A DNA stretch of 64,000 nucleotides from Thermoanaerobaculia bacterium (GTDB lineage Bacteria; Acidobacteriota; Thermoanaerobaculia; Gp7-AA8), in the NCBI GenBank assembly GCA_036380735.1, contig DASVEE010000025.1, forward strand, positions 3,041-67,040. Reading direction: 5' to 3'. This document shows, piece by piece, positions 12,982 through 63,612 of the stretch (its first letter is position 1; every line of letters starts with the position of its first letter). The notes under the pieces were generated by a model, which saw only the letters and a list, made by a program, of their open reading frames with translations, was not told the DNA's origin and did not search any database. Position numbers and translations under genes: made by a program.

Positions 12982-13590
12982 GTGATCAAACGTACAGTCA
13001 TCGCTCTCGCACTTCTCCTGCTCCCTCTCGCCGCTACTGCACAGCCGGCCAATGAGTTCGGCATCTTCATCTCCACCTCTCAGTTCGATGACGCCGTGCT
13101 CACCGACGGCATCGATGAAGCCGACGTCGAGTTCGACGAGGACATGGGGTATGGCGTGCTGTACAACCGCTTCTGGTTCGGCGGCTTCTCGACCGAGTTC
13201 GCCTACCAGCGCCTCGGTGCCGATCTCACCCTCTCCTTCCAGGACATCACGGAAGACGCGGGCGAGCTCGATCTCGACGTGCTCTCCGGGACGGCCCAGT
13301 TCCACTTCGCCCGCGGCGGCCTGATCAGCCCGTACATTGGCGCCGGCGTGGCCTATATCAGCGGCGAAGCGGGCGCGATCGACGAGGACGAGCTGGAAGC
13401 GGTCGATCTGGAAAGCGAAGTCGAGTTCCTCGCCAACGCCGGCCTCAACGTCAACTTCGGCCAGGGCTTCTCGATCTTCGCCGACGGCAAATACATCATG
13501 TACGAGGCCCGCGGCGAAGGCGATCCGGATGACGAAGCGCTGGAGCTGAACCCGCTGATCATCTCCGCTGGGATCAAGTTCCGCTTCTGA
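12982..13590 (+). CDS. outer-membrane beta-barrel protein (OmpW/OmpA-like small barrel)
   Basis: GTG start after GGAGG SD; signal peptide MIKRTVIALALLLLPLAATAQ; alternating amphipathic beta-strands; C-terminal GIKFRF aromatic terminus typical of OMPs. Confidence 0.7.
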   Translation: MIKRTVIALALLLLPLAATAQPANEFGIFISTSQFDDAVLTDGIDEADVEFDEDMGYGVLYNRFWFGGFSTEFAYQRLGADLTLSFQDITEDAGELDLDVLSGTAQFHFARGGLISPYIGAGVAYISGEAGAIDEDELEAVDLESEVEFLANAGLNVNFGQGFSIFADGKYIMYEARGEGDPDDEALELNPLIISAGIKFRF

Positions 13591-13601
13591 AGTTTGCCGT
13601 A

Positions 13602-13645
13602 CGAGTGGATGCCGCAGCCAGCCGGCATCCACTCGTGTTTCGCTT
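13602..13645 (+). terminator. rho-independent terminator-like hairpin
   Basis: CGAGTGGATGCCG-CAGCCAG-CCGGCATCCACTCG perfect 13-bp stem directly after the stop of the OMP gene, followed by GTGTTTCGCTT. Confidence 0.6.
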
Positions 13646-14171
13646 GCCACACACGTAGCGCCCTCGCTCCGACGGTATGACCTGGGCGCATCACCGGATT
13701 GCACCACTCGTCCGCGGCTGAACGCGCTGACAGTTCCAGGTGCGCCGTGTCGCCGTGAGTCGTAAGGCGACTGAGATCGCGGGATGAACAGCAATTCTCG
13801 TGTCCCCTGAGAATCGACTGCAACCGAGCCTTCTAGAACCGACCACAAAAACAAATAGAAGCTCGTCGATCGCATCGAGTGCGCGGCGTCTAGGCATTGT
13901 GGATTGGCGGCCGGCGCCTGTCCCGCCACAAAAAGGTCGAATCGGGAGCCCGGACGATGGACATCGAGCCATTCATTGCCATGAGACAGCTTGCCGTGGC
14001 AAAAGCAGATTTTCGAGTCTGCATTTAGCCCATGCGTCCTCGGTGCTATGCTACGCGCACACTTAATTCAACAATCACTGACCGGGCGGTTCTCAAGAGC
14101 TGATGTCCGGCTGCGGCTTTCAATTTCGACGGCACAGCCGCGCGTTTCCTCCGCCAGAGGAAGGAGAAGCA

Positions 14172-17100
14172 ATGAAGAAGTGGACGCCATTTTTCTGCGG
14201 GCTCGCGATCATTCTGTTGTCATCTACAGGTGCGGCGGCGGGCGAGATGGACCGTTCACAAAACCCACCGAGCTCTCGTGAATTGAGCGTCGCACTCGAA
14301 ACTAAGCCATCCAAGCTCACTTCGGAATTCCAAGAGCTGGCTCGCCTCGATCGATGGCGCGGTCGAGCGGCGGCGCAGTCGTTTGCTGCCGAGCGCGGAC
14401 TTTCGTTCTCTGGCGCCACGGTCAAAGTGGTCATCCAGTTCGTCCCGGGAAGTGTGGTAGCTGTGAAAAGTCATCTCCACACGCTCGGTGCCACGGTAGA
14501 AACGGTCGCAACCGACCTGATTCTCGCGCGCGTTCCTGTCAGCGCGCTGCAGGCACTCGCATCGGCCGACGAGGTGAAGATCGTCCGACGGCCGCACGCC
14601 CCCACACCGTTTGGAGCCACGAGCGAAGGCGTCAATGCCATGGGTGCGATCGCATGGCATGCGGCGGGCCGAAAGGGAGCCGGCGTCAAAGTCGCCATTC
14701 TTGACCTCGGCTTCTCCGGCTATCAGTCGCTGATGGGCAGTGAGATCCCGAATATTCCACCGACACGGATCAAGTCATTCAGCGGCGACATCGGGGGCGG
14801 CACAGAACATGGCTTGGCGGTCGCCGAAATCGTCCACGATGTTGCGCCAGAGGCGGAGCTTTATCTCGCGAACTTCTCGAACGACGTGGAACTCGAGCTC
14901 GCTGTTCAATGGCTGATCGATCAGCGCGTCCATGTCATCAATGCCTCGTGGGGATATCCGTGCGGCGGACCATTGGACGGTACCGGACCGACGAACGCGC
15001 TCGTACGTCGCGCTGCAGAAGCGGGGATACTGTGGATCTCTGCCGCGGGAAACTTCGCACAGCGCCATTGGTCCGCGGCGTTCAACGACAGCAATGCCGA
15101 TGGATGGCACAACTTCGCCTCCAATGAGGAGGGGAACACCGTATTCCTGAACTCGGGAGACGAGCTCCGTGTCTGCGTGGCGTGGGACGATTGGACAAAG
15201 CGAGATCAGGACTTCGACCTTTATGTTTGGAACAGTAATGGAGCCATCGTCGGCTCCTCGACTAATAGCCAGGGCGGTCCCGACACACACGATCCGTCGG
15301 AACTCGTCACTTTCACCGCGAGCGCGACAGGCAACTATCACATTGGAGTGAAAAGAGATCGGGGAACGCGGAATCCCGTACTGCACCTCTACGCGTATCC
15401 TCCCGGCACGGAATGCGCGATCGAGGCGGTCGCCGCCGCTCACGATCCCATGCCGAGCGATTTTCTGGGCGAACTGCGCCAATTTCGGGATCACGTTCTT
15501 GCTCCTTCGCGATTCGGAAGGGTGCTGATCGAATCGTACTACCGCCACTCGGCTGAGCTTAGACGTACCCTGTTGTCCCATCCACTCCTGGCGATCGAAG
15601 CCGTGGCGCTGATGCGAGCGTCCCGGCCGGCGGTTCAATCTGTGCTGTTGAGCCGGCGCGGTGTTTCGAGCGACGGGGGCTTCGTCATCTCCGAGGCCTA
15701 CGCGTCGCGTGTCGACCGCTTTCTCGATCGAGTGAGCGAGGTCGCCTCACCAACGCTCGGTGCGGATCTTGCGGAGTTTCGCGCGAAAGCAGCGTTGTCC
15801 GCGGCCGCCGGTCAGAGTGTGCAGCAGTACTGGGAATCACTGCTCCGACAACCCCCGATCCTCAACGGCGCCGCAGACGCGACATATCCTGACCCGGGGT
15901 ACCTGCGCTACGCAACGCTGAGCACCAGCGTCGTGCCGCCGGCGGATTCGGCCTACTCCTTGACAGTTGGTGCGATCAACTGGGCGACCGGTGTCCTGGA
16001 GGAGTTCAGTTCCCGCGGTCCGACTGCGGATGGCCGGGTCAAGCCGGAAATCGCCGCAACCGACGGCGTTTGCACGGCAACCTATGGCAACTGCGGTATG
16101 GGCGGCTTCGCTGGCACCTCCGCTGCGGCTCCTCATGTTGCCGGTGCTGCGGCATTGGTCCAGCAGGTATATCCGCTGCGAACTCCCGCAGAAATCCGCA
16201 ATTTCCTGACCGGCCGCGCGGTGGATGTGTCACCCGCGGGAGCGGACAATCAGACGGGTGCGGGACGTCTTGCGCTGGGCGCGATGACTGATGTCGACGT
16301 TCTGCCAGCGCCATCCTTGTTGGGTCCGCTCGGAACGAATGCGCCGATCTGGCCCACGTTCCACTGGTCGGAGATCGATGGAGCGGCGTCTTATCGGCTC
16401 ATGGTGGCCACCAGCGCCACGGCATTGCCGACAGATCCGCTCACTCAGGCTTGCAGCGGTTGTCTAGTCAACACGACGGTCTCGACTTCCTACTTCACCC
16501 CGGCGGTGCCGTTGCTGGCGGCGTCTACGTATTACTTCCAGGTGCAGGGACGGACGGCAGTGAAGAATGGCCTATGGGCTCGCGCGACGTTTGTGACGTC
16601 CGTTTCCCCGGAGCTGACGCGGCCGGAACGCACTAATTTGATCGAGGAATCAGGACCGTGGCCGGCAGCCGCCGGCAAGGCCGTGTTGATCACGCATGGC
16701 TGGCGGGCAAGCGCTGCTCCGAAGGTCAGTGGAGAGCAAACCTGGGTTAAGGAAATGGCGGAAAAGATGTGTGGCCGGCTCTCCGCGGATCGGGTCGTCA
16801 CGTCCGTAGGAGCCGGGGCCCTGACGAAAATGTGTCAGGCGCAAGGGTGGGATGTTTGGGTGATGGACTGGAGCGCCAGAGCGGACACGGGGCTGCCCTG
16901 GAGCGCCGTTGCCAATGCCACGGCGATGGGCGAAGCAGTCGCTACAAACCTGATAACCAAAAACTATACGCATCTTCATTTGATTGCCCACAGTGCGGGA
17001 TCGAACCTGATTGACTCGGCGACGCGGCGACTGAAACTCTGGACGGCGCAGGAGAACCGTCCCGGGATCAACATTCACGAGACCTTTTTGGACGCGTACG

Positions 17101-47100: not shown

Positions 47101-47715
47101 CAGCTCCCATTTGCCGAGGTGCTTGGCGATGAATTCGTTGCCGAAGGTCGGCAGCAGGAAGAGGATGGCGGCACCGATGTAGCTGGCAATCGAGCGGCGC
47201 GTCAACGCGGCCAGGGCGAAGAGGATGGCCGTCGTGACGAACGCGTTCGGGAGCGTGCAGACCGTGTACGCGTTGAGGTACACGGCGGGACGGAACGGAG
47301 CGATCAGCTCCGCCTCGATGCCCGGTAACCGCGCGGCGACGATCAGCCCGATCGGCACCGCGGCGAGCAGCAGGGCGCTCATGGCGAAGGCGCCGAGGAA
47401 ACGTCCGCCGAGGTGCGCGGCTTTGCTGATGGGCGTGGTGTAGAGGAGCGGCTCCATCCGCGTCTGCATGTCGCGCGTCGCCGCATCTCCGGCGATCGCG
47501 GCCGCGACCAGCAGCGCGAACATGCTGCCGATGACGGAGACGGCGGCGGTGGTGAACGGCCCGTTGAAGAAGTAGCCTCCGGTGCGCGCGTTGCCGAGGA
47601 ATGCTTCGGTGCCGACCTGCAGCGTGAGACCGAGGACGGCGGCGAAATAGAGCCACGTCGAGCGGCGCCGTGTCTGGTAGGCGAGCTCGAAGCAGAAGGT
47701 CTTCCAGACCTTCAT
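44140..47715 (-). CDS. ABC-2-type permease domain fused to M1-family zinc metallopeptidase (paralogue of 37138..40755)
   Basis: 1191 aa; N-terminus MKVWKTFCFELAYQTRRRSTWLYF aligns with the paralogue (MPLKLLEIFRFELDFRMRRPATWLLL); HEVAHQWWGNQ gluzincin motif; start overlaps upstream ATPase stop by 4 nt. Confidence 0.85.
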   Translation of the reverse strand: MKVWKTFCFELAYQTRRRSTWLYFAAVLGLTLQVGTEAFLGNARTGGYFFNGPFTTAAVSVIGSMFALLVAAAIAGDAATRDMQTRMEPLLYTTPISKAAHLGGRFLGAFAMSALLLAAVPIGLIVAARLPGIEAELIAPFRPAVYLNAYTVCTLPNAFVTTAILFALAALTRRSIASYIGAAILFLLPTFGNEFIAKHLGKWELAQQLDPFGFTVMSALSRAWTPAQKGSQLLALEGILLTNRLLWLGIAVGVLALTYAGFRFAHHTPRTFMPRWLRRSRPAAALSPNEEQSTTPIAVPAVERRFGFGTRVRQMLVITRRSFREIVLSWGAIALAVVVLFLVAAGPELMEHIGIPLHPVTERILAHLAGPGDLPGFMAIFLMVFYAGEVIWRERDAGMSVIADATPVPDWVPFTGKLLGLTLVLVLLQALMMGGGLLTQIRLGHHDFEVGLYLIVLFGIYLSGYLLFTALAVAVHVIVNQKYVGHLVVILAYALTAYASDLGIEHNLLIYGSDPGWDYSDMSGFGPHLAPVLWFKLYWGGWALLFAVVAKLLWPRGTSRGMKERLRLGRGRVSTPARWSLAAAAGVIVLVGSFVFYNTNVLHAYAPSDDLTARRARYEQRHGRYDGVPQPRRTATSLHIELEPARGEADIRGTYDLVNKTAAPIDAIHLATAREVETDGIQFNRPFAPRLVDKQLGHRIYTLKEPLQPGDSLRMQFRVRFRPRGFTNGGVNDRVASNGTHFEGDWLPAIGYQPDRELSNAGERKLHGLPARPPLPRLEDARGRNDETRGERIAFEAVIGTAANETAVAPGTLRRTWRAQGRHYFHYATDTPIRPGFAIFSADYAVHRARWRDVDIEVLHHRGHPWNVERIVKGVQASLESFTKDLGPYPHQQIRLVEAPGSSIGLRSHPINIRFFEGFALLNSSTDDRNVDFPFAVVAHEVAHQWWGNQLTPANVEGAALLSESLSWYSAMNAVDQTYGPEHLGRFLDILREAYLHPRGRADVPLLRADDWFVGYRKGPFAMYALREYVGEKQVTLALRRLMDKHRNGTAPLPTTLDLYAELKAVTPEPLRYLLVDLFEVNTFWELSTKAATAEPASGGAWRVTLNVAAKKVAVNTEGAETVRPMNDLIEIGVFAAEGKPLYLRQHRIKPGQQTVTVTVPGKPARAGIDPRNILIDTVWRDNTVEVTTGK

Positions 47716-48662
47716 GACGCCACGCCGTTCAGCCGCCGCAGCTCCGTCCGTGTGAGGGTTTGAACAGCCGCGCCGTTGGCCACGTGCCCGTTCATGGTGC
47801 AGAAGTAGACGTCCTCGAGGTCCGGCTCCACCGGCTCGAAGCCGGTCGGCGCGGTCTCGCTGTAGACGTGCACGAGCGTCCGTCCGGCGAGGAGGCGCGT
47901 GGAGATGACGGCGTGCTGCCGCTCCAGCGCCGCGAGGTCGCTCTTCTCGACGACGCGCTTCCAGATGCGGCCGCGCAGCTCGTCGACCGCGCGCAGCGGC
48001 TCGGCTTCGAGCAGGATGCGTCCCTTGTCGATGATGGCCATGCGGGTGCAGAGCTCGGAGACGTCTTCGACGATGTGTGTGGAGAGGATGACGACGCTGT
48101 TCTCACCGAGCTCGCTGAGGAGGTTGAGGAAGCGCACGCGCTCGGCGGGATCGAGTCCCGCGGTGGGCTCGTCGACGATCAGCAGCTTCGGGTTGCCGAG
48201 CAGCGCCACCGCGACGCCGAAGCGCTGGCGCATGCCGCCGGAGTAGCCGCCGAGCTTCTGCTTGCGCGCCTCCCAGAGGTTCGTCTGCCGCAGCAGTGCC
48301 TCGATGACCTGCTTCCGGTCGCCGCGCGCGGTGATCCCTTTGAGGACCGCGAAGTAGTCGAGCAGCGCCTCGGCGCTCGACTTCGGGTAGACGCCGAACT
48401 CCTGCGGCAGATAGCCGAGCGTCTTCCGCACCTCGTCCTTCTGCCGCAGCACGTCGAGGTCGCCGAGCTGAATCGCGCCGGAGTCGGGCTCCTGCAGCGT
48501 AGCGATCGTGCGCATGAGCGTCGACTTCCCGGCCCCGTTCGGCCCGAGCAGCCCATACATCCCGCGAGGGATCGTCAGACTGACGTTCTGCAGGGCCTTG
48601 AGCCCGTTCGTGTACGTCTTGGAAAGGTTTTCGATGCGCAGTTCAAGCGGAGCGGTGGCCAT
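47712..48662 (-). CDS. ABC transporter ATP-binding protein
   Basis: Walker A GPNGAGKST, signature YSGGMRQRF, Walker B LLIVDEPTAGLD; 316 aa; translationally coupled to the permease-M1 fusion. Confidence 0.9.
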   Translation of the reverse strand: MATAPLELRIENLSKTYTNGLKALQNVSLTIPRGMYGLLGPNGAGKSTLMRTIATLQEPDSGAIQLGDLDVLRQKDEVRKTLGYLPQEFGVYPKSSAEALLDYFAVLKGITARGDRKQVIEALLRQTNLWEARKQKLGGYSGGMRQRFGVAVALLGNPKLLIVDEPTAGLDPAERVRFLNLLSELGENSVVILSTHIVEDVSELCTRMAIIDKGRILLEAEPLRAVDELRGRIWKRVVEKSDLAALERQHAVISTRLLAGRTLVHVYSETAPTGFEPVEPDLEDVYFCTMNGHVANGAAVQTLTRTELRRLNGVAS

Positions 48663-50522: not shown

Positions 50523-52370
50523 TCAGCACCCCCGATGAATCGCCGACAGGTGCAGCGCCGGCGGAGTGACGTCGGTCAGATAGTTGGTGAACGGTGACGC
50601 GGCGAGCGCGGTCTCGACGAACGACTTCTGCCGCTTGCGCCGCGACTTGGAGGTGAGGTTCTTGTACACGATCATCGTCGCCGTGCCGGCCGTGTCGAAC
50701 ACGACGGTCGCACCTCCCTTGAAGCGCTTCTCCGTGTCGCCCGGCTCGAGCTCCGCGTGCCCCACGATGTGCGCGATGAACTCGACCTGCGGACGCTGGC
50801 TCCCGCCGCGGACGACCATGTTCACCGACCGCACCGCGCGCGGAATCCGCGGAATGTCGCAGTTGCAGGTCGCCTTCGTGTGCGTGTCGTCTTCGCAGAG
50901 ACCGAAGGCGAAGGGATGCGCGCGCACGACCTCCTCCAGCTTGTTGCAGTTGTCGTCGAAGAACTTGTTCGGCTCGAGGAGGTCGAAGCAAAGCCCGGGA
51001 CAGGCGGGCGTGTCCGGCGGGGCCTTCTGCCACAGCAGCGACTCCTCGGCCAGCGAAGTGACGTCGTCCGGCACGATGCCGCGCGCGCGGAACGCCTGGA
51101 TGAAGGCGTCGCGATAGTCGTGATCGTCGCTGCGGTACAGCTCCGTGTCGGCGGTGATGAGCGCGCGGAGGAAGTCGCCGAAGGTGATGTCGACCGGCGG
51201 ACAGTAATCGATGGCGCGGATGCACATCGTGCAGAAGTGACTCGCGACTTTCGACGCTTCCTTGGCCAGCCTCGCGGCGATGTCGGGATGGATCTCGTCC
51301 GAGCCGCTCGACACCGCGCGCGCGAGGCGGATCAGGTCGGCCGTGCGGTGCATGAAGGAGCTGAAGAACGCGTCGAACACGGCGGCGACGAGCACTGCTC
51401 CGCGCTCGTGCGCTTCCGTCGCCTCGGCCAGCGCTCGCGGATTGGGAGCGACGCCGAGGGCCGAGCGGAGCGCGGCGCGCCGGCCCATCGATTCGCCGAA
51501 CTGGCGCGCCAGGTCGAGGAGCGGGTTCCCTTCCGGCATCTCGCCGACGATGAAGATCGGGCTGTCGGGGTCGCGGTCGGCGACGGCGCCGCGCGGCGCG
51601 AGGTCGAAGCGGTGCAGCACCCCGCCGGAGCGCTGCAGCGTGTCGCGCACGACGTCCTCGAAGCGGAAGTGCTGGAACAGCGCGACGATGTCCGCGAAGG
51701 CCTCATGGAACCCGAGCACGTCGGGGTTCGTCGCCTCCATGAACGTGTCGCGGAGCGTGTCGACGATGGCGTGCGTCGTCTCGTGCGCGATGATGTCGTG
51801 CGAGAGGCAGGTGAAGACGGTGCCGGCGGGCAGTCCGCTGCCGGCTTCCTCGCTCGACGCACGGAAATAGCCGAAGAGCAGCGCGCCGAGCTCACGCGAG
51901 TAGTACGCGTTCGGCTCGTACATCGCGTGCGGGAAGATGCGCAGCACGTTGCGCGAGCCGGCCGCGTCCTGGAACCGGAAGAGGATGTCGCGTCCGAGGG
52001 CACGCTCGAAGATGTTGATCGTCTCCATGGCCACGGCGTAGACCATCTGCTGGTGAAAGCGTGGATCGGATTCGCTCGGCGCGAGTCCCCCCTCCACGAG
52101 CGCGGCGGGGGAGTTGAGGTCGACCGGCTTGTAATAGAGGTTGTTCGTGGCGTCGAAGTCGATGACGTGGATCTGCTGCCCTTCGAGCCGCTGCTCGAGG
52201 TCCTCGTACTTGACCCGGACGGTCATGTGATTGCCGAGGCGGCGGCCACGCCCGGGATCGAAGGCGTACACGCGCAGCGCACGATACGGCGGCTTATCGA
52301 CCTCGGGTGCGAGGTCCGGTAGCGGGTTCGCGGACATAGGAATCTCCTCTGAGGACGACGACTCGTACAA
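50523..52370 (-). CDS. leaderless thermolysin-like (M4-type zincin) metallopeptidase with Cys-rich C-terminal region
   Basis: 615 aa; no signal peptide; HEXXH IIAHETTHAIVD followed about 25 aa later by GFHEAFADIVALF (matches M4 NEAxSDIFG third-ligand motif); C-terminal Cys clusters (CTMCIRAIDYCPP, CPGLCFD, CEDDTHTKATCNCD). Confidence 0.65.
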   Translation of the reverse strand: MYESSSSEEIPMSANPLPDLAPEVDKPPYRALRVYAFDPGRGRRLGNHMTVRVKYEDLEQRLEGQQIHVIDFDATNNLYYKPVDLNSPAALVEGGLAPSESDPRFHQQMVYAVAMETINIFERALGRDILFRFQDAAGSRNVLRIFPHAMYEPNAYYSRELGALLFGYFRASSEEAGSGLPAGTVFTCLSHDIIAHETTHAIVDTLRDTFMEATNPDVLGFHEAFADIVALFQHFRFEDVVRDTLQRSGGVLHRFDLAPRGAVADRDPDSPIFIVGEMPEGNPLLDLARQFGESMGRRAALRSALGVAPNPRALAEATEAHERGAVLVAAVFDAFFSSFMHRTADLIRLARAVSSGSDEIHPDIAARLAKEASKVASHFCTMCIRAIDYCPPVDITFGDFLRALITADTELYRSDDHDYRDAFIQAFRARGIVPDDVTSLAEESLLWQKAPPDTPACPGLCFDLLEPNKFFDDNCNKLEEVVRAHPFAFGLCEDDTHTKATCNCDIPRIPRAVRSVNMVVRGGSQRPQVEFIAHIVGHAELEPGDTEKRFKGGATVVFDTAGTATMIVYKNLTSKSRRKRQKSFVETALAASPFTNYLTDVTPPALHLSAIHRGC

Positions 52371-52453: not shown

Positions 52454-53833
52454 CTACCGCGCCTGGAAGCGCACCGTGGCGTTGTTCTCACCCGCCATCA
52501 CCGCGATGGAGATCGGCGCGGCAAAGTCCGTGGCGGTGTCGTAGATCGTCTGTCCCTCGACGAGAGTGCGGTAGGGCCAGAACTCGTAGGTGCCGGCGGG
52601 GATGCGCTCGAGGGAGAGGCTCCCTTGTGCGTCCGTCATCAGCGGGAAGCCGCGGCTGCCGAGCAGGCGTGCGATCGCCGGCGGCACGGCGATGCCGTCG
52701 ATGCGCATCAGCACGATCATGTCGGAGAACGGCTCGCCGGCGACGGTCTTCAGCGTCAGCCGCAGCGAGGATGTCCCTTCCTTGACGCGGATCACGAGCG
52801 GCTCCGTTCCTTCTACCGCCTGGATGGCGAAGGACCCTTCGTTCGGCAGGACATAGATCGCGCAGGAGGAGCCGCCCGGCAACGCGACGTTCGCGATGCC
52901 TTCAGCGTTCGTGACCGTCGTCGACTTGAGGTGGCCACCGCACGCCGTGAACAACGTGGCGCCGGCGAGCGGCGCGTCGCGCATGTCGACGACGCGCACC
53001 GCGCGCGGCTCGCCGCGCGTCAGCTCCACATCGAGGACCTTCTGCCCCGGTGCACCGCGGAGGTCGAACGTGACGGCATCGCTGTCGAGATAGGAAGGAG
53101 CGCGCGCCGTGAGCGTCAGGGCACCTTCGCGAACGCCGAAGAACTCGAAGCGGCCATCGGGCGCGGACTGCGTGCGGAGCGTCAGCACTCCTTCGTTATC
53201 CTCGGAGCGCAGGAGGATGACCGCGCCGGCGACCGGCTTACCGCCGGCGGCGATGCGGCCGGTGACGTGCCGGTCCGGAACGTCGATCGTCAACGGCTCG
53301 GGTTTGAGCGCGACGTCGACGGTATGCGGCGCCGAAGTGGGCTCGCGGCGCACGCCGACGCCGTAGCCGCCCGGCTCCCACAACTCGCCCTCGAAGCGCC
53401 CGTCGTCACCCGTCCGGACCCCCGTAGTCCAGCGAAGTTTGTCGTGAGTCAGTGTGACTTGGGCGCCGGCGAGCGGCTCGCCGGCCAGCGTCGCGTGCAG
53501 CACGGTTTTCGAGCGGGGGAGGACGAGGCGGATCGTGCTGCCGCCGGTTCCGAGGTTCGCCTTCGCGCTGAGCCGCTGCAGCGGCTGCGGTCCGCTTGCC
53601 AGGACGACGTAGAGCCCCTCGGTCAGATCGGGAAAGCTCACCGCGGATTTGCCGGCGGGGAGCGTCTTCGTCACGGACCAATGGGGAGGCTCTCCATCGA
53701 CGCGAGGCGCGACGGCCACCTGGATCGGACCGGCGAAGCCCTGGCGGCTCACTTCGACGTTGAGCGTGGCGGCGGATGCGGTGGTTGCGAGCAGCAGGAC
53801 GAACGCTACGGCGAGGAATGTGCGCATGGTCAT
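52454..53833 (-). CDS. secreted protein with tandem carboxypeptidase-regulatory-like (CarboxypepD_reg) beta-sandwich domains
   Basis: GGAGG SD; signal peptide MTMRTFLAVAFVLLLATTASA; at least 4 repeats of the ..G.PLAGA.V.L........T..DGRFE/F.. pattern. Confidence 0.7.
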   Translation of the reverse strand: MTMRTFLAVAFVLLLATTASAATLNVEVSRQGFAGPIQVAVAPRVDGEPPHWSVTKTLPAGKSAVSFPDLTEGLYVVLASGPQPLQRLSAKANLGTGGSTIRLVLPRSKTVLHATLAGEPLAGAQVTLTHDKLRWTTGVRTGDDGRFEGELWEPGGYGVGVRREPTSAPHTVDVALKPEPLTIDVPDRHVTGRIAAGGKPVAGAVILLRSEDNEGVLTLRTQSAPDGRFEFFGVREGALTLTARAPSYLDSDAVTFDLRGAPGQKVLDVELTRGEPRAVRVVDMRDAPLAGATLFTACGGHLKSTTVTNAEGIANVALPGGSSCAIYVLPNEGSFAIQAVEGTEPLVIRVKEGTSSLRLTLKTVAGEPFSDMIVLMRIDGIAVPPAIARLLGSRGFPLMTDAQGSLSLERIPAGTYEFWPYRTLVEGQTIYDTATDFAAPISIAVMAGENNATVRFQAR

Positions 53834-54469: not shown

Positions 54470-57400
54470 ATGTCTGTTGTGCGTGGTCGTGTGCTCGTGG
54501 CGCCTTCTGGCAGAGGCATCGCGAACCTGATCGTCGAGGCTTTCGACGTGGAAACGAAAGACCCGTCCGTGCCGAGGCGGCGGCTGGGATCGGGCGAGAC
54601 GAACGAGAAGGGCGAGTTCCGCATCGACTACACCGTCGATGCTGCAGACACGTCGGGTGTCGGTCTGATGATCGCGGTCTCGCCGCCCGAACGTCCGGAC
54701 CGGACCACCGTGCCGCTGTATATGTCGCGTGAGGTTCGCCAGCGCGCGGCGGCGGTGGAGGTCTTCCTCATTACGCTCACCGAGGGCGATCTCGAAAAAG
54801 GAGGCGGCGTGCCCGTCGTGCCGCCGCCGGGAGATCCGGAGCCGGCGTCGATGGCGGCCGCGCGTCTGCTGGCCGATTCGCGTCGCAGCCTGGACCTGGC
54901 GCGCGCCCGCACGGACGCGGAGCGGATGAAAGTCGATGAGGCGCGTGCGGTGACGGCCGCGTTCCGCGGGGAGTTCGCGCCCGCGCTGCAGCGCAGTCTG
55001 AGCAGCGTCAGCGAGGAACAGGCGCGCGCGGATACGTTCGTCGTCCCCGGAGCATCCGTCGCGGCGGTCTCTCGCGGCGCGATGACGAACGATCTCTTCA
55101 ATGTCATCAACAATCCGCAAAGACGCGCGCCGATGAAGGCGCGCATCGCGCTGACCGGCCAGCAGCTCACGGACCTCCGCGCGCGGCTGGGAGCAGGCAA
55201 TACGATCTCCGCGCACGCTCTGCATGAAGTCCTGGGAGGCCCTCCGCCTTCATCGCAGTCGAGCTATCTGCGCGAGGATCCGCTGGCGATCGTCTGCCGC
55301 GAGATCACCACGGACGAGCGCACCGCTGCCGCGGCTCTCGACGTGCCGCTTCCGGCCTCGACGCCTCCACCGGCGCCGCCGGATGGTGACGTCCCCGGCA
55401 CTGGCGTCGACGTGCTGGAAGCGGGTGACGTGAAGCGTTACCTGGCGCGGCTGGTGGACACGATGACGTCGCCCGAGGAGGGCGTGCTCGCGGGGCTGGA
55501 GCCACGCGCCACGCGCGGCATCGTCGACGCGCAGGTGCAGGGTCTCGCCTTCCAGCCCAGTCCTGCCGACACGACGGCGTACTACGACTTCCACAATCTT
55601 CAGGTCGCATTCCGGCACGTCTGGCAGGAGGCGGTGGATGAAGGCGTGCTCACTCTGGCCGAGGCAGCGTACGACGAGATCGTGATGGGCGGCGGCCGGC
55701 CGGCTCCGCAACCGGGCACGCCTCCGCTGCAGTCGCTGGTCAGCGAGGCGCAAGCCGTCAAGCGCGCGCGCGCCGGCACGCAGAGCGTCGGCTCCGCGCT
55801 GCGCAGCGGGTTGCTGCCGGGCTTCATCGACAATCTGCTCCATCCCGACAAGGTTCTCGACCCGCCGGCGGCGGAGGCTCTGCCGTCCCTCGTGAACGAG
55901 CTCACGCAACGTTTGCAGGAGCCGTACGCCTTCACCACCTTTGCCGCCAATCGCCAGGAGCGGAGCGTGAACTTCGGCATTCGCGTCACCTACCAGCAGG
56001 AGTGGAAGCCGCTGGAGTACCAGGCCGGCCGTCTGGCCAAGACCATCACGCTCGCTCCGAAGGAAGTGCGCAAGTACAGCAAGACGGTGAAGCGCCATCG
56101 CAAGCGCGCGGAGAAAGAGGTCGAGAAGCACGTCAGCATCCGCAAGGACGAGTTGAGCCAGACCTCGCGCGTGGAGCAGGAGATCATCCGCAAGGCCACC
56201 GCCAAGACGCATTTCGAGATCGGCTCCGAGACGTCGTCCGGCAACCCGGAGCTCACGCCGACGTCGACGGTGAAGACGTCGTTCGAGCGCGAGGTCGGCC
56301 AGGTCTCGGACAACGTCAAGAAGTCCTTCAACGAATCGGTGCGGAAAGCGGTGCAGGAGCTCACGAACGAGCTCACCGTGGAGATCAACCGCGAAGAGAC
56401 GGAGGATGTCGAAGAGACCGAGTCGGGTGAGATCGCCAATCCGAACGACGAACTGGCGGTGACGTTCCTCTTTTACGAGCTGCAGCGCCGCTACCGCATC
56501 GCCGAGCGCATTCATCGCATCATGCCGGTCGTGCTGGTGGCGCAGGAGATGCCCAAGCCGCACGAGATCAACGAGGCCTGGCTGATCAGTCACGACTGGA
56601 TCCTGCGCCGTGTGCTGCTCGACGATTCGTTCGCGCCGGCGTTGAGCTACCTCTCCAGCCAGGTGGTCGGAGACCAGGTCGCGCTGTCGGAGATGAAGAC
56701 CAATATCTCCCAGCAACGCGCGGCCATTCAGGAGCTGAAGCAGCAGTTGAAGGTCGTTCGGCAGCGTGCATCCACGTACCGCAATCTGCTCGAGCGATCG
56801 CTGCTGCACGCCGCCGAGAAGAGCAAAGACAGCGACGATGGTTGGTTCAGCGGCATCCCGATCGTCGGCGGCGCCGTCGAGCTGGTCGAAGACGCCATCG
56901 ACGCCGTCGGCGATTTCATCAACCCCGACATGCCCGAGGTCGGCCCCAGCCGGCAGGACACGCTCAAGGAAACGATCGAGCGGACCATCGATGAGGAGCG
57001 CGATCTGCTGATGCGTCTCGAGCGCGAGGTCACCGCGCTGAACGCGCTGACCGAGGCCTACGCGAAGCTCCTGGCCGAGAACTACAACCAGCGCACCCAG
57101 ATCCTGCGCCTGCGCACCCACGTGAAGCAGAACATCCTCTATTACATGCAGGCGATCTGGAATCACGAGCCTCCCGACCAGCGCTATCTGCGCCTGCATG
57201 AGACGCCGGTGCCGGTGTTCGTGGGCGACCAGACCTATCGCTTCGCCAGCGTCGACCCGGTGCCGGGCTCGATGAGCAATCCGCCGCATCGCAAGCTGGG
57301 CGTGGACACGCTCGATCCGACACAGGTTTTCGAGGCCGAGGTCTTCTGCAACCTCTCCACGCACGAGACGCGACCGCTCTCACGCGTCGCCGATCTCGAC

Positions 57401-57916
57401 AACCTCCTCGGCTATTTCGGCAACTACATGATCTTCGGCCTGAAGGAATCGAACGCGTTGACGGACTTCATGATGGAGCCGTACCTGCTGCGCGGCTTCG
57501 ACGAGCTGGTCGATCCCGACGACCTCGGCAACTGGAGTCTCGACGAGTTCGTCGACTACGTCGTTTGTCTCCGCGAGCGCATGACCGCCGAACAGTTCGA
57601 GCTCGTCAAGCCCGAGCTGCGCGCGCAGTACGAGCGTCTGATTACCGCTCCGCATCGAAACGGGGACGTGATCACCATTCCCACCGGCTCGCTGTTCATC
57701 GAGGCGCTGCCGGCCACGTCGTCGCTCATCGAGAAGTTCAAGGCCATCCACCGCGCGGTGGACGTGAAGAAGGCCCAGGCCGAGGCGCGCCACGCGGAGA
57801 TCCGGAACCTCTGGATGGTCGACCGGCTGCTGCACGACGAGCGCGAGGATCCCGACATCGACAAGAAGATCATCATCGAAGGCGCCGTCGGACCGGTCCT
57901 CCCGGTGGACGAGTAG
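54470..57916 (+). CDS. large uncharacterised protein (1148 aa; N-terminal CarboxypepD_reg/transthyretin-like fold, central Lys/Glu-rich coiled-coil region)
   Basis: GGGAGG SD 7 nt before ATG; no signal peptide or TM; N-terminus MSVVRGRVLVAPSGRGIANLIVEAFDVETKDP...GEFRIDY; central KEVRKYSKTVKRHRKRAEKEVEKH... charged block; no Walker motifs; clean protein-like composition over 3.4 kb while the opposite strand gives only an Arg-rich ORF. Confidence 0.75.
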   Translation: MSVVRGRVLVAPSGRGIANLIVEAFDVETKDPSVPRRRLGSGETNEKGEFRIDYTVDAADTSGVGLMIAVSPPERPDRTTVPLYMSREVRQRAAAVEVFLITLTEGDLEKGGGVPVVPPPGDPEPASMAAARLLADSRRSLDLARARTDAERMKVDEARAVTAAFRGEFAPALQRSLSSVSEEQARADTFVVPGASVAAVSRGAMTNDLFNVINNPQRRAPMKARIALTGQQLTDLRARLGAGNTISAHALHEVLGGPPPSSQSSYLREDPLAIVCREITTDERTAAAALDVPLPASTPPPAPPDGDVPGTGVDVLEAGDVKRYLARLVDTMTSPEEGVLAGLEPRATRGIVDAQVQGLAFQPSPADTTAYYDFHNLQVAFRHVWQEAVDEGVLTLAEAAYDEIVMGGGRPAPQPGTPPLQSLVSEAQAVKRARAGTQSVGSALRSGLLPGFIDNLLHPDKVLDPPAAEALPSLVNELTQRLQEPYAFTTFAANRQERSVNFGIRVTYQQEWKPLEYQAGRLAKTITLAPKEVRKYSKTVKRHRKRAEKEVEKHVSIRKDELSQTSRVEQEIIRKATAKTHFEIGSETSSGNPELTPTSTVKTSFEREVGQVSDNVKKSFNESVRKAVQELTNELTVEINREETEDVEETESGEIANPNDELAVTFLFYELQRRYRIAERIHRIMPVVLVAQEMPKPHEINEAWLISHDWILRRVLLDDSFAPALSYLSSQVVGDQVALSEMKTNISQQRAAIQELKQQLKVVRQRASTYRNLLERSLLHAAEKSKDSDDGWFSGIPIVGGAVELVEDAIDAVGDFINPDMPEVGPSRQDTLKETIERTIDEERDLLMRLEREVTALNALTEAYAKLLAENYNQRTQILRLRTHVKQNILYYMQAIWNHEPPDQRYLRLHETPVPVFVGDQTYRFASVDPVPGSMSNPPHRKLGVDTLDPTQVFEAEVFCNLSTHETRPLSRVADLDNLLGYFGNYMIFGLKESNALTDFMMEPYLLRGFDELVDPDDLGNWSLDEFVDYVVCLRERMTAEQFELVKPELRAQYERLITAPHRNGDVITIPTGSLFIEALPATSSLIEKFKAIHRAVDVKKAQAEARHAEIRNLWMVDRLLHDEREDPDIDKKIIIEGAVGPVLPVDE

Positions 57917-57920
57917 GGAA

Positions 57921-59727
57921 GATGGGCGACGGAATCACCGACGTCGAGCGCGGAGTGTCTGTCGCGCCGAAAGGGCTCGCCAGCGGTGAGGCGTGGCTGG
58001 CCATGGTCGAGCGCATGATGCAAATCGTCACAGGCGGGCAGCGCTGGGACTACTCCGTGCGTCACGACGTGGAGAAGGATATCGAGGAGTCGAGACGCAC
58101 CGGGATCACGCCCAGGCAGATGTTGGAAGGCCGCCGCCAGTTCTCTACCGATACGGAACGTCTCTACTATCTCCGCTTCCTGCTCGAATACGAGATCGAA
58201 GGAGGCGGGTGGATTCAACTCGGGATCTACTACCGCGGACCCAAGGACCCGGCCCGAATCGCCGCGGCCATGGCCGACTACGAGATCAAGCGCCTCCAGT
58301 CGGTGGCCGAGCAGGCGGTGCCGGTGCCGCCTCCTCTGCAGCGACAGCGAAGCGTGCGCGGCCTCGACACCGATTGGGAGCGAGGTGCGGCGCAGCGGGA
58401 ACGAGAAGAATATGAAGCGTTTCTGATCGAGGTGGCCCGCCAGGAAAGTGCGGACGAAGCACGTTCACGAGATCTTCAAGCGCGGTACGGTGGCAGGACG
58501 GGCACGAAGAGCATGCTCGATTACTACGTCGGCGACCCGGTCGTGTATGCCGCCGACCGAGCGATCAAGGCGGTCCCCGGAATGGTCAGCCTGGCGTTGG
58601 ATTTCGTTCCCGTCGTCGGTCAGTTGAAAGCCGCCCTGGAAGCGATCAGCGGCCGCGACCTGATCACCGGCCGGCATCTCGCCGACTGGGAGCGCGGCCT
58701 CAATATCCTTCTCTCGGTTCTGCCGTCGGCGAAAGCGGCGTTCCGCGGAGGCAAAGCGGGGCTCGCGGCGCTGGCCAAAGCGACGGCGCAGAGTGGCAAA
58801 CCGGCCGCCGAGGTCTATCGCGCCGCGAAGGGCGCGAGCCGGCTCACCGACGCGGAGGTGAAGGCGGCGAAGGTCCTTCGCAACGGCAAGCCCGTCAACG
58901 CGGCCGCATTCGACAAGGTCGCTGGCAGCATCGACGAGATGATGGGGACGCCGAAGGTCGGCCGCACCGAGATGTACCGCGTCGCGGCCGGCGAGATCCA
59001 CGATGGGCGCATGGTCACCAGCTCCATCGCCAGCTCACCGGTGAGCGTGCCGCCGAAGCCCGTCGGCCGCCCGGTGACGCCGACGCGAACGACGCCCCGC
59101 GTCGCCACGACGCTGGCGAACGCCGGTGTCCTCCCCGAGGCCATCGCGGCGCTGAACCGGGCCGGCGTGGCGGTGAACAAGGTATCCAGATTCCTGACCA
59201 CGCCGCGGGTGAGGGACTTCGTCAACACCTTCCATCAGAGTCCCGGCTTTCATCTGATCGTCGAGGATCTCGCCAAGGGCGCCACGAAGAAGAAAGGCGC
59301 GCTGTTCATCATCGACTTCGTCAATGACGCGAAGAACAAGATCGATCCGAAGCTGGCCATGTTCGAGATGGACGTGGGAATTACCAAGAGCCCGCTGCGG
59401 GACCGTTCCGCGCGGGTGACCGATCTCGTGGTGACCCAGGGGGGGCGCGCGTTGAACTACGAGTTCAAGGCGTACTCGATGGCCTCACTCAACAAAGCGC
59501 TCGCCGACCCGCAGAAGATCCTCCAACTGGTCAAGGACGTCGCCATCCACGGGCGCCGGAACATCAAGTGGGTGTTCGATTCCGCGGAGATCTCGGAGTC
59601 GTACCTCCACAAGAAGTTCACCGCCATCATCAATGCCGATCCGTTTCTCAAGAGCCGGTTCAGCGGCAAGGCGGACGAACTGGAAGCCATGCTGGACGAA
59701 CTGCTGATTCTTTACCCGAAGAAATAG
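57921..59727 (+). CDS. uncharacterised protein (602 aa) with pre-toxin-TG-like segment and candidate PD-(D/E)xK-like C-terminal domain
   Basis: ATG 5 nt after upstream stop (GGAAG SD); segment PGMVSLALDFVPVVGQLKAALEAISGRDLITGRHLADWERGLNIL resembles the pre-toxin TG module of polymorphic toxins; C-terminal FHLIVEDL ... VTDLVVTQGGRALNYEFKAY fits E ... D ... E-x-K spacing; no signal peptide. The listed ORF extends upstream into the previous gene. Confidence 0.7.
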
Positions 59728-63177: not shown

Positions 63178-63478
63178 AACGATAGGACGAATGGGACGGA
63201 TAGGACGAATGGGACGAATAGGACCGATGGGCAAACCTGGTGTCATCCCGAAGCCCCCGTATGGGGGCCGGGCGGGGGAGGGGGCTGAGGGATCTGTGTG
63301 GGGGAACGTGACACCACTTCTACGCCGCGATTCCCCCACACAGGTCCCTCACCGCCCTCCGCCGCCCACGCCCCCATACGGGCAGTTCGGGATGACACGC
63401 TTTATGCCTGTTGGACCTACTGTCTTTGTCCCATCCGTCCTATCCGTCCTATAGGTCCTATAGGTCCTATCGTCCCCC
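63178..63478. repeat. complex ATAGGAC-family element with nested internal palindromes
   Basis: Outer arms AACGATAGGACGAATGGGACGGATAGGACGAATGGGACGAATAGGACCGATGGG (63178-63231) and TTTGTCCCATCCGTCCTATCCGTCCTATAGGTCCTATAGGTCCTATCGTCCCCCC (63425-63478); inside, GTCATCCCGAAGCCCCCGTATGGGGGC pairs with GCCCCCATACGGGCAGTTCGGGATGAC, and CTGTGTGGGGG pairs with CCCCCACACAG. Confidence 0.85.
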
Positions 63479-63492
63479 CGTCGCTCTCCGCG

Positions 63493-63612
63493 ATCCGGCT
63501 GATTCGGGATGACACGAAGGGGATTGGACCTACTGTCTTTGTCCCATCCGTCCTATCCGTCCTATAGGTCCTATTCGTCCTATCGTCCCCCGACTCACTC
63601 CCCGCGATCCGG
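63493..63612. repeat. tandem duplicate of the right half of the preceding element
   Basis: TTCGGGATGACACG...GGACCTACTGTCTTTGTCCCATCCGTCCTATCCGTCCTATAGGTCCTAT.CGTCCTATCGTCCCC followed by CGCGATCCGGCT repeats the block at 63383-63500 almost exactly. Confidence 0.8.

Follow-up and report, generated by a model that had tools for sequence, protein, structure and literature searches.

A two-gene cassette in Thermoanaerobaculia that joins a conserved large protein to a variable polymorphic-toxin-type effector

Introduction

The cargo toxins of extracellular contractile injection systems (eCIS) carry N-terminal loading signals, often have no immunity genes, and are released independently of envelope type. 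Another group of toxins carries the pre-toxin TG (PT-TG) domain, a helical domain that was defined by its position directly before nuclease toxin modules of various kinds (Zhang et al. 2011; PMC3113570). In a survey by Becerra Soto et al. (2026; PMC13483458), proteins of the "PT-TG singleton" type, which have no trafficking domain, proved to be common in monoderms and diderms and are unexplained. Here, we describe a locus in a 64,000-nucleotide stretch of a Thermoanaerobaculia genome (GenBank assembly GCA_036380735.1, contig DASVEE010000025.1, positions 3,041 to 67,040; called the window below) that encodes a PT-TG protein, the product of gene 2, immediately after a gene for a conserved 1148-aa protein, gene 1. 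The evidence strongly supports these two genes being one cassette, of which one half is constant and the other polymorphic. In the literature searched, itself limited, we found no description of the cassette, and within that literature it is previously undescribed. An earlier sequence-only reading of the window had considered gene 2 by itself and had taken its product to be either an intracellular effector such as an abortive-infection nuclease or a protein whose resemblance to toxins was coincidental.

Results

A constant gene followed by a hypervariable effector gene

A relative of gene 1 (approximately 1160 to 1217 aa) was found directly upstream of every full-length gene 2 homolog that was placed on a contig, the placed homologs being those of a Thermoanaerobaculia metagenome-assembled genome (MAG), Streptosporangium roseum, and two metagenome contigs. 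When one genome per GTDB species was scanned, at least 223 loci encoded a gene 1 relative. These belong to most bacterial phyla and, among the archaea, to two MAGs (Methanophagaceae and Methanococcoides), and the distribution covers monoderms, diderms, mycolate actinobacteria, and archaea. The gene 1 proteins of Thermoanaerobaculia (Acidobacteriota), Deinococcus aerophilus, Pontibacter pamirensis (Bacteroidota), and others are 55 to 75% identical to one another, and 104 positions, concentrated at residues 480 to 730 and 876 to 1125, are at least 90% identical in 70 homologs.

We fetched 80 of these loci and examined what followed gene 1. In 71 of them, a co-directional open reading frame (ORF) started between -38 and +180 nt from the gene 1 stop codon. 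These partner ORFs encode 105 to 1148 aa, mostly 300 to 1100, and are hypervariable; column identity averages 7%. Gene 1 proteins of equal closeness were paired with unrelated partners of 479 to 601 aa that could not be aligned to the gene 2 protein. Pfam models identified PT-TG (four partners), Ntox5, WHH, CdiA_C, Colicin-DNase, and Peptidase_M10 in the partners. Our own hidden Markov models (HMMs) found PT-TG in six loci and the C-terminal (CT) domain of the gene 2 protein, on otherwise different proteins, in L008, L025, L028, and L059. Since gene 1 is well conserved and its partners are hypervariable, some of them with toxin domains, we conclude that the cassette consists of a constant gene and then a polymorphic effector gene.

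A D...E-x-K motif near the N terminus (e.g., AVILDIAYEL...LLIESKFN) was observed in some other partners (L067, 10541 to 13258; L087, 10667 to 13411; L054, 7523 to 9484; L072, 11898 to 13901; and L007, 11717 to 13471), which may, judging by this motif, constitute a second and different PD-(D/E)xK-like effector class of the cassette family. Directly after the variable gene of L007, at 13490 to 14655, a 234-bp unit is repeated five times with 94% matches, and four 43-aa ORFs are called in this array at a spacing of about one repeat unit.

The gene 1 protein matched no Pfam, NCBIfam, PADLOC, or PHROG family. Its start at 54470 was preferred over the NCBI model (1122 aa, 26 residues shorter) on the basis of the conserved N terminus of its homologs, MNxVxGRVxV.... 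The AlphaFold2 (AF2) model contains an N-terminal transthyretin-like beta-sandwich (residues ~1 to 104), which Foldseek matched to transthyretin in the PDB with a probability of 1.0, followed by helical regions, two long beta-hairpins, an antiparallel helical hairpin of approximately 55 and 70 residues (732 to 785 and 827 to 899), and a C-terminal beta-rich region. A "PVVG" loop was considered as a PT-TG-like element of this protein and was dropped; conservation within the family is lowest at this loop. The loop at the hairpin tip is variable.

A short N-terminal motif shared by the partners

Close to its N terminus, the gene 2 protein carries a conserved peptide in which R10, G11, and P16 are invariant throughout the gene 2 family and which holds a single RG copy (DVERGVSVAP). 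The motif RG[T/I/V] was present within the first 50 aa of 27 of the 71 partners, compared to 8.2% of the other windows of this length (binomial p 4e-12), and at least two copies, usually 5 residues apart, were found in 15 partners. Both bacterial and archaeal partners carried it, every major gene 1 clade was represented, and there was no correlation between motif and clade. The N termini of the archaeal L051 partner, the Mycobacterium L046 partner, the L076 partner, and the S. roseum homolog are QRGTFSRGTMSRGTEPR, KQRGTDKRGTARVP, ERGTIDRGTGGESRGV, and ALERGTGDRGVTTDP, respectively. We consider this peptide a candidate recognition or loading signal by which the gene 1 protein may recognize its variable partner. 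The sequence-only reading had stated that gene 2 has no secretion or trafficking determinant; because gene 2 is a cassette partner and carries the shared motif, that statement is probably wrong. Its narrower observation was borne out, as Pfam searches at E<=1 revealed no LXG, RHS, PAAR, WXG, or other recognized trafficking domain in the gene 2 protein; known trafficking domains were likewise absent from relatives.

Modular structure of the gene 2 protein

The long open frame that spans gene 2 extends from 57565 to 59727. Within it, the ATG at 57922 and the stop codon at 59725 to 59727 delimit a clean 601-aa product; the 602-aa protein previously placed at 57921 begins out of frame. The junction of the two genes reads GAG TAG GGAAG ATG, with the gene 1 stop codon at 57914 to 57916 and a gap of 5 nt. 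The GC content at third codon positions (GC3) of gene 2 is 0.83, near that of the neighboring genes and host-like. An identical protein is listed by NCBI as [quoted passage not shown]

PF14449 (PT-TG) was the sole Pfam family at E<=1 on the gene 2 protein and scored well above its curated gathering cutoff (E 3.6e-14; 52.9 bits versus 23.5). The PHROG "toxin" family phrog_18811 also matched (E 4e-5, residues 222 to 356), and PT-TG was present in all full-length homologs. The PT-TG-like segment noticed earlier is therefore real, and the curated-threshold score rules out a chance resemblance; the string that had been quoted for it begins at residue 219 and not near 255. Searches of NCBIfam and PADLOC with the gene 2 protein returned no family, and neither product of the cassette had a match at E<=1 in PADLOC-DB 2.0. 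The protein designated P0010, which joins an eCIS_core domain to the N-domain and PT-TG of gene 2, aligns with the gene 2 protein only to approximately residue 345 and then diverges, and the module boundary lies within residues 281 to 394. Taken together, these results strongly support the view that gene 2 encodes a modular, polymorphic-toxin-type effector, in the order RG[V/T] peptide, family-specific N-domain, PT-TG, linker, and C-terminal toxin module. Neither paralogs nor orphan CT cassettes were found in the window.

The C-terminal domain is a shuffled module and probably a nuclease

No Pfam model covers the last ~200 residues of the gene 2 protein. A profile of residues 385 to 601 was therefore searched against 1.84 billion cluster representatives, and it matched at least 134 proteins or clusters at E<=1e-3, 62 of them at E<=1e-10. 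The CT domain was at the extreme C terminus in all 134 clusters. Full-length members are approximately 580 to 2076 aa; many of the other matches are shorter and are probably fragments. Among 48 long members, the N-terminal part contained eCIS_core/DUF4157 in 13, PT-TG in 3, and PT-HINT in 1, and fn3 and Peptidase_S8 were also found. A scan of metagenomes with the CT alignment yielded 2 loci only. Because the domain sits at the extreme C terminus after differing N-terminal architectures, there is strong support for its being a polymorphic-toxin C-terminal module that has been shuffled onto many carriers, including eCIS-core and PT-HINT proteins. This is the module shuffling by which polymorphic toxins have been recognized (Zhang et al. 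2012).

Nine residues (E482, R498, D501, E514, K516, Q535, D539, W550, and D553) are invariant in 10 full-length homologs of 29 to 53% identity, and conservation was further counted over 112 diverged members (Table 1). The sequence-only reading had proposed a nuclease motif E...D...EFK. Its D501 (in VTDLVV) and its E514 and K516 (in YEFKAY) are conserved, and its first acid, E448 (in IVEDL), is not; E482 (in MFEMDV) is conserved instead. Structure prediction, which that reading had suggested as a check, gave a confident AF2 model from the 10-sequence alignment (predicted local distance difference test [pLDDT] score 85.6, predicted template modeling [pTM] score 0.82). In this model, where the protein residue is the model residue plus 384, a helical subdomain is followed by a strand (479 to 482), a low-confidence loop, two strands (501 to 506 and 509 to 517), helices (520 to 541), a strand (548 to 553), further helices, and a last strand (595 to 598). 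The core reads alpha-beta-beta-beta-alpha-beta, a topology taken from the secondary-structure string and not from structural superposition. In it, D501 opens strand 2 and E514-x-K516 lies on strand 3, which is where D and (D/E)xK stand in a PD-(D/E)xK core.

The other suggested check, a significant PD-(D/E)xK profile or fold match, gave no such match in Pfam, in PDB HMM searches, or in Foldseek searches of the PDB and BFVD. For the CT model, the best PDB match had an E of 0.23, with BamHI and the Cap4 nuclease at a probability of <=0.28 only, and the best BFVD match had an E of 0.10, with a "restriction enzyme" and a HamA-C protein among the non-significant ones. Profile searches of the domain with two alignments found no significant match among PDB sequences. 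With phmmer or HMMs, the gene 2 protein, its CT domain, and the gene 1 protein all gave only chance-level PDB matches, such as EspG3 (E 0.26), a designed repeat protein, and a tape-measure protein (E 0.44). These results speak against a nuclease and for the alternative that the domain is another enzyme or a binding module whose D...ExK pattern is convergent. We find that alternative rather unlikely, given that the E, R, D, ExK, Q, and D are near-invariant across the 112 diverged members, that the residues are placed exactly on strands 2 and 3 of the modeled core, and that the domain is at the extreme C terminus behind pre-toxin domains. Motif, topology, and context together suggest that the CT domain is probably a metal-dependent PD-(D/E)xK-type nuclease, with E482, D501, and E514 as the likely metal ligands and K516 as the likely catalytic lysine.

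Downstream ORFs, neighboring genes, and other features of the window

Gene 2 has no cognate immunity gene directly downstream, another feature by which polymorphic toxins are recognized. An S8 peptidase gene on the opposite strand ends 65 nt beyond gene 2, confirming the earlier remark that a convergent gene, and no small immunity ORF, follows it. The same arrangement is present in L001, and a different convergent gene occupies this place in L088. A search for immunity-like ORFs beside homologs, as had been proposed, was also negative. Loci with the CT domain of gene 2 had no downstream ORF in common, the 250 nt that follow the partner contained no co-directional ORF of >=70 aa in approximately 20 loci with ample sequence, and no known immunity family was found in 44 ORFs downstream of partners. 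The WHH-nuclease partner in Amycolatopsis likewise had no adjacent immunity gene. On the upstream side, no small conserved ORF was common to the window and L001. Among the 148 proteins encoded by the two flanking genes on either side of 38 cassettes, no family was recurrent, the maximum being 3 of 148; scattered defense matches among them were to MADS, Cas, AbiEii, PD-T4-6, and a methyltransferase. No eCIS genes (sheath, tube, and baseplate), no type VI or type VII secretion system (T6SS or T7SS) genes, and no contact-dependent inhibition (CDI) genes were present in the parts of the window that were scanned.

These data bear on whether gene 2 simply encodes an ordinary secreted polymorphic toxin, exported by a general or distant route, with an immunity gene that is divergent or elsewhere and with gene 1 as an accessory (a chaperone or adaptor) or of minor importance. 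In favor of this explanation, immunity proteins are highly diverse and often have no Pfam model, and PT-TG singletons without a trafficking domain are common in monoderms and diderms (PMC13483458). The strict adjacency to gene 1 across phyla and domains, the convergent gene directly downstream in three independent contexts of close homologs, and the failure to find T6SS, T7SS, CDI, or eCIS genes in the scanned parts of the window all count against this explanation, and we judge it improbable.

Several other features of the window were recorded (Table 1). Three short arrays of a 9-nt tandem repeat, one in one orientation and two in the other, all lie in the region upstream of the S8 peptidase gene that converges on gene 2. 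The genes for the 459-aa and 110-aa proteins just upstream of the cassette are not conserved beside it elsewhere. The adjacent genes for the 405-aa and 615-aa proteins are probably co-transcribed and may be another uncharacterized pair. An ABC ATPase gene accompanies the fusions of ABC-2 membrane domains with Peptidase_M1. The gene for the 1306-aa S8 subtilase, which lies in a lower-GC stretch at 13 to 18 kb, has a GC3 of 0.66 compared to 0.83 to 0.92 in the surrounding genes and may have been acquired horizontally.

Table 1. Positions of the cassette, its domains and conserved residues, and other features of the window
Feature	Position (nt)	Strand	Basis or remark
Gene 1, conserved partner, 1148 aa, no known domains	54470-57916	+	ORF list, homologs
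Gene 2, PT-TG protein, variable effector of the cassette, 601 aa	57922-59727	+	ORF and translation, homologs
N-terminal conserved peptide with RG[T/I/V], residues 7-18, DVERGVSVAPKG	57940-57975	+	Family conservation, enrichment
PT-TG pre-toxin domain, residues 221-280	58582-58761	+	PF14449
Post-TG conserved helical segment (residues 281-345) and Pro-rich linker (346-394)	58762-59103	+	Homolog conservation profile, P0010 alignment
CT toxin-type domain, residues ~395-601, PD-(D/E)xK-like signature	59104-59724	+	Homologs, residue conservation, AF2 model
E482	59365-59367	+	Conserved in 109/112 members
R498			Conserved in 107/112 members
D501	59422-59424	+	Conserved in 105/112 members
E514	59461-59463	+	Conserved in 104/112 members
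K516	59467-59469	+	Conserved in 106/112 members
Q535			Conserved in 96/112 members
D539			Conserved in 103/112 members
W550			Conserved in 109/112 members
S8 subtilase, 1306 aa	14103-18023	+	
ABC-2 membrane domains fused to Peptidase_M1, ~1200 aa	37138-40755	+	
ABC-2 membrane domains fused to Peptidase_M1, ~1200 aa	44140-47715	-	
ABC ATPase	47712-48662	-	
Metallo-beta-lactamase-fold protein, 405 aa	49304-50521	-	
615-aa protein	50523-52370	-	HExxH motif (IIAHETTHAIVD), no Pfam family
Secreted 459-aa protein	52454-53833	-	CarboxypepD_reg repeats
Cys-rich protein, 110 aa	53883-54215	-	Signal-peptide-like N terminus
9-nt tandem repeat, ATAGGACGA x4.8	63181-63224		Upstream of the S8 peptidase gene
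Reverse complement of the 9-nt repeat, GTCCTATMC x5.4	63428-63475 and 63541-63588		

Discussion

The explanation that we consider best, to which we give about an even chance, is that gene 2 encodes a partner-dependent cargo toxin. A fuller version, to which we lean somewhat less and hold as tentative, assigns a part to each half of the cassette. The gene 1 protein would be a constant carrier, docking, or translocation component that recognizes the effector encoded after it, whatever its type, by the RG motif at the effector's N terminus and holds that effector harmless in the producing cell. We propose that an effector kept harmless in this way would need no dedicated immunity gene. The gene 1 protein would then deliver or present the effector outside the cell after an envelope-independent release, for example by lysis, as with eCIS or Tc particles.

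Several results weigh against a carrier of this kind. The role proposed for gene 1 is drawn from synteny only, and the carrier function is a guess: its AF2 model has low confidence (pLDDT 60.6), and beyond the N-terminal beta-sandwich Foldseek matched it to no known structure. No clear RG[T/I/V] copy is present in 44 of the 71 partners. Neither product of the cassette has a transmembrane segment, a signal peptide, or a signal-like leader, and no lysis or secretion genes were found near the cassette. Finally, an active nuclease without an immunity gene is explained no less naturally as a suicidal effector that acts within the cell.

This last point leads to the main rival, in which the two genes would form a system of abortive infection or intracellular conflict. 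The gene 1 protein would sense infection or stress and restrain the effector through the RG peptide, and the triggered nuclease would degrade both the cell's own and phage DNA. Such a system accounts as well as a cargo toxin does for the lack of an immunity gene and for the occurrence in bacteria and archaea alike. It agrees with the absence of signal peptides, transmembrane segments, and nearby secretion genes, and the spread over monoderms, diderms, mycolate actinobacteria, and archaea is most easily explained by intracellular action. Some loci also lie beside CRISPR-Cas and a resolvase, AbiEii/HigB, a Tn3 transposase, or integrases, and a few neighbors match MADS, Cas, AbiEii, or PD-T4-6 models. 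These defense genes are, however, only a handful of the 148 neighbors and none of them recurs. No PADLOC model matches either protein, and neither an NTPase domain nor any other known sensor domain is present in gene 1. Abortive infection also fits the exported-toxin modules less well, as PT-TG, PT-HINT, eCIS_core, CdiA_C, Colicin-DNase, and Ntox5 are hallmarks of exported inter-organism toxins (PMC3482391). We rate it as possible but doubtful. Of the two possibilities raised by the sequence-only reading, the intracellular abortive-infection nuclease survives as a rival that we do not favor, and coincidence is eliminated for the PT-TG segment; the conserved cassette had been missed.

The boldest reading would make the gene 1 family a self-contained bacterial and archaeal machine that loads exchangeable toxins by an RG[T/I/V] pentapeptide-repeat signal, makes immunity proteins unnecessary, and either delivers the toxins to other cells or unleashes them upon infection. 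This is speculative, and we think it possible but doubtful. If true, it would represent a new mode of trafficking or control for polymorphic toxins, and both its fold and its mechanism would differ from those of type V secretion systems (T5SS), T6SS, T7SS, eCIS, or Tc. Confirmation of the cassette's proposed function would establish a new toxin carrier or control protein family and a new C-terminal nuclease toxin family that has no Pfam model, and it would explain how nuclease toxins can be encoded by cells that have no immunity genes for them. Since cultured organisms carry the cassette (Deinococcus aerophilus, Pontibacter pamirensis, Chitinophaga skermanii, Nocardia brasiliensis, and Streptosporangium roseum), experiments on it are feasible.

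Among described systems, the polymorphic PT-TG singleton or toxin class (PMC3113570, PMC3482391, PMC13483458) resembles gene 2 in having PT-TG followed by a variable C-terminal toxin module, in the recombination of that module onto many carriers, in having no recognized trafficking domain, and in occurring in monoderms and diderms. Gene 2 differs from this class in that it has no adjacent immunity gene, is obligatorily preceded by a conserved ~1150-aa gene, carries the N-terminal RG[T/I/V] peptide, and has no link to either T7SS genes or a W10XG/LXG domain; its cassette is also found in archaea. The export route of PT-TG singletons is an acknowledged open problem (PMC13483458). For one subset of them, the cassette offers a concrete candidate answer, namely, a conserved single-protein partner and a short N-terminal signal, found from Acidobacteriota to methanogen-related archaea.

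PD-(D/E)xK toxin and effector domains, such as those of the Tox-REase families, the Cap4 nuclease domain, and HamA, share with the CT domain an alpha-beta-beta-beta-alpha-beta core whose strands 2 and 3 bear the conserved acid...D...ExK pattern, as well as a Q in the next helix and a C-terminal effector position. Neither sequence profiles nor Foldseek showed significant similarity of the CT domain to these domains, and it differs from them in an extra N-terminal helical subdomain of ~85 residues, a conserved R three residues ahead of the D, and a conserved W.

The cargo toxins of PVC/Afp-type eCIS, marked by eCIS_core/DUF4157 (PF13699), are connected to gene 2 through the proteins with its CT domain, more than a quarter of the long ones (13 of 48) having eCIS_core, and through P0010. 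Gene 2 itself has no PF13699 domain, no sheath, tube, or baseplate genes were found in the scanned segments, and the gene 1 product, one protein of 1148 aa, has no relationship to any eCIS component known. Identity with the eCIS-linked toxin PT6 (Nachmias et al.) was considered and is unlikely because PT6 is described as acting in the periplasm. A last comparison, to binary or carrier toxins such as Tc (TcA with TcB/TcC) and anthrax toxin (protective antigen with lethal factor or edema factor), is an analogy of how the parts may work. Neither sequence nor fold gives evidence of homology, and gene 1 matches no TcA_TcB_BD or Tc domain. By analogy, these toxins likewise combine a large constant component with exchangeable enzymatic cargo that is recognized by its N-terminal part, and they are assembled in the cytoplasm, independent of envelope type.

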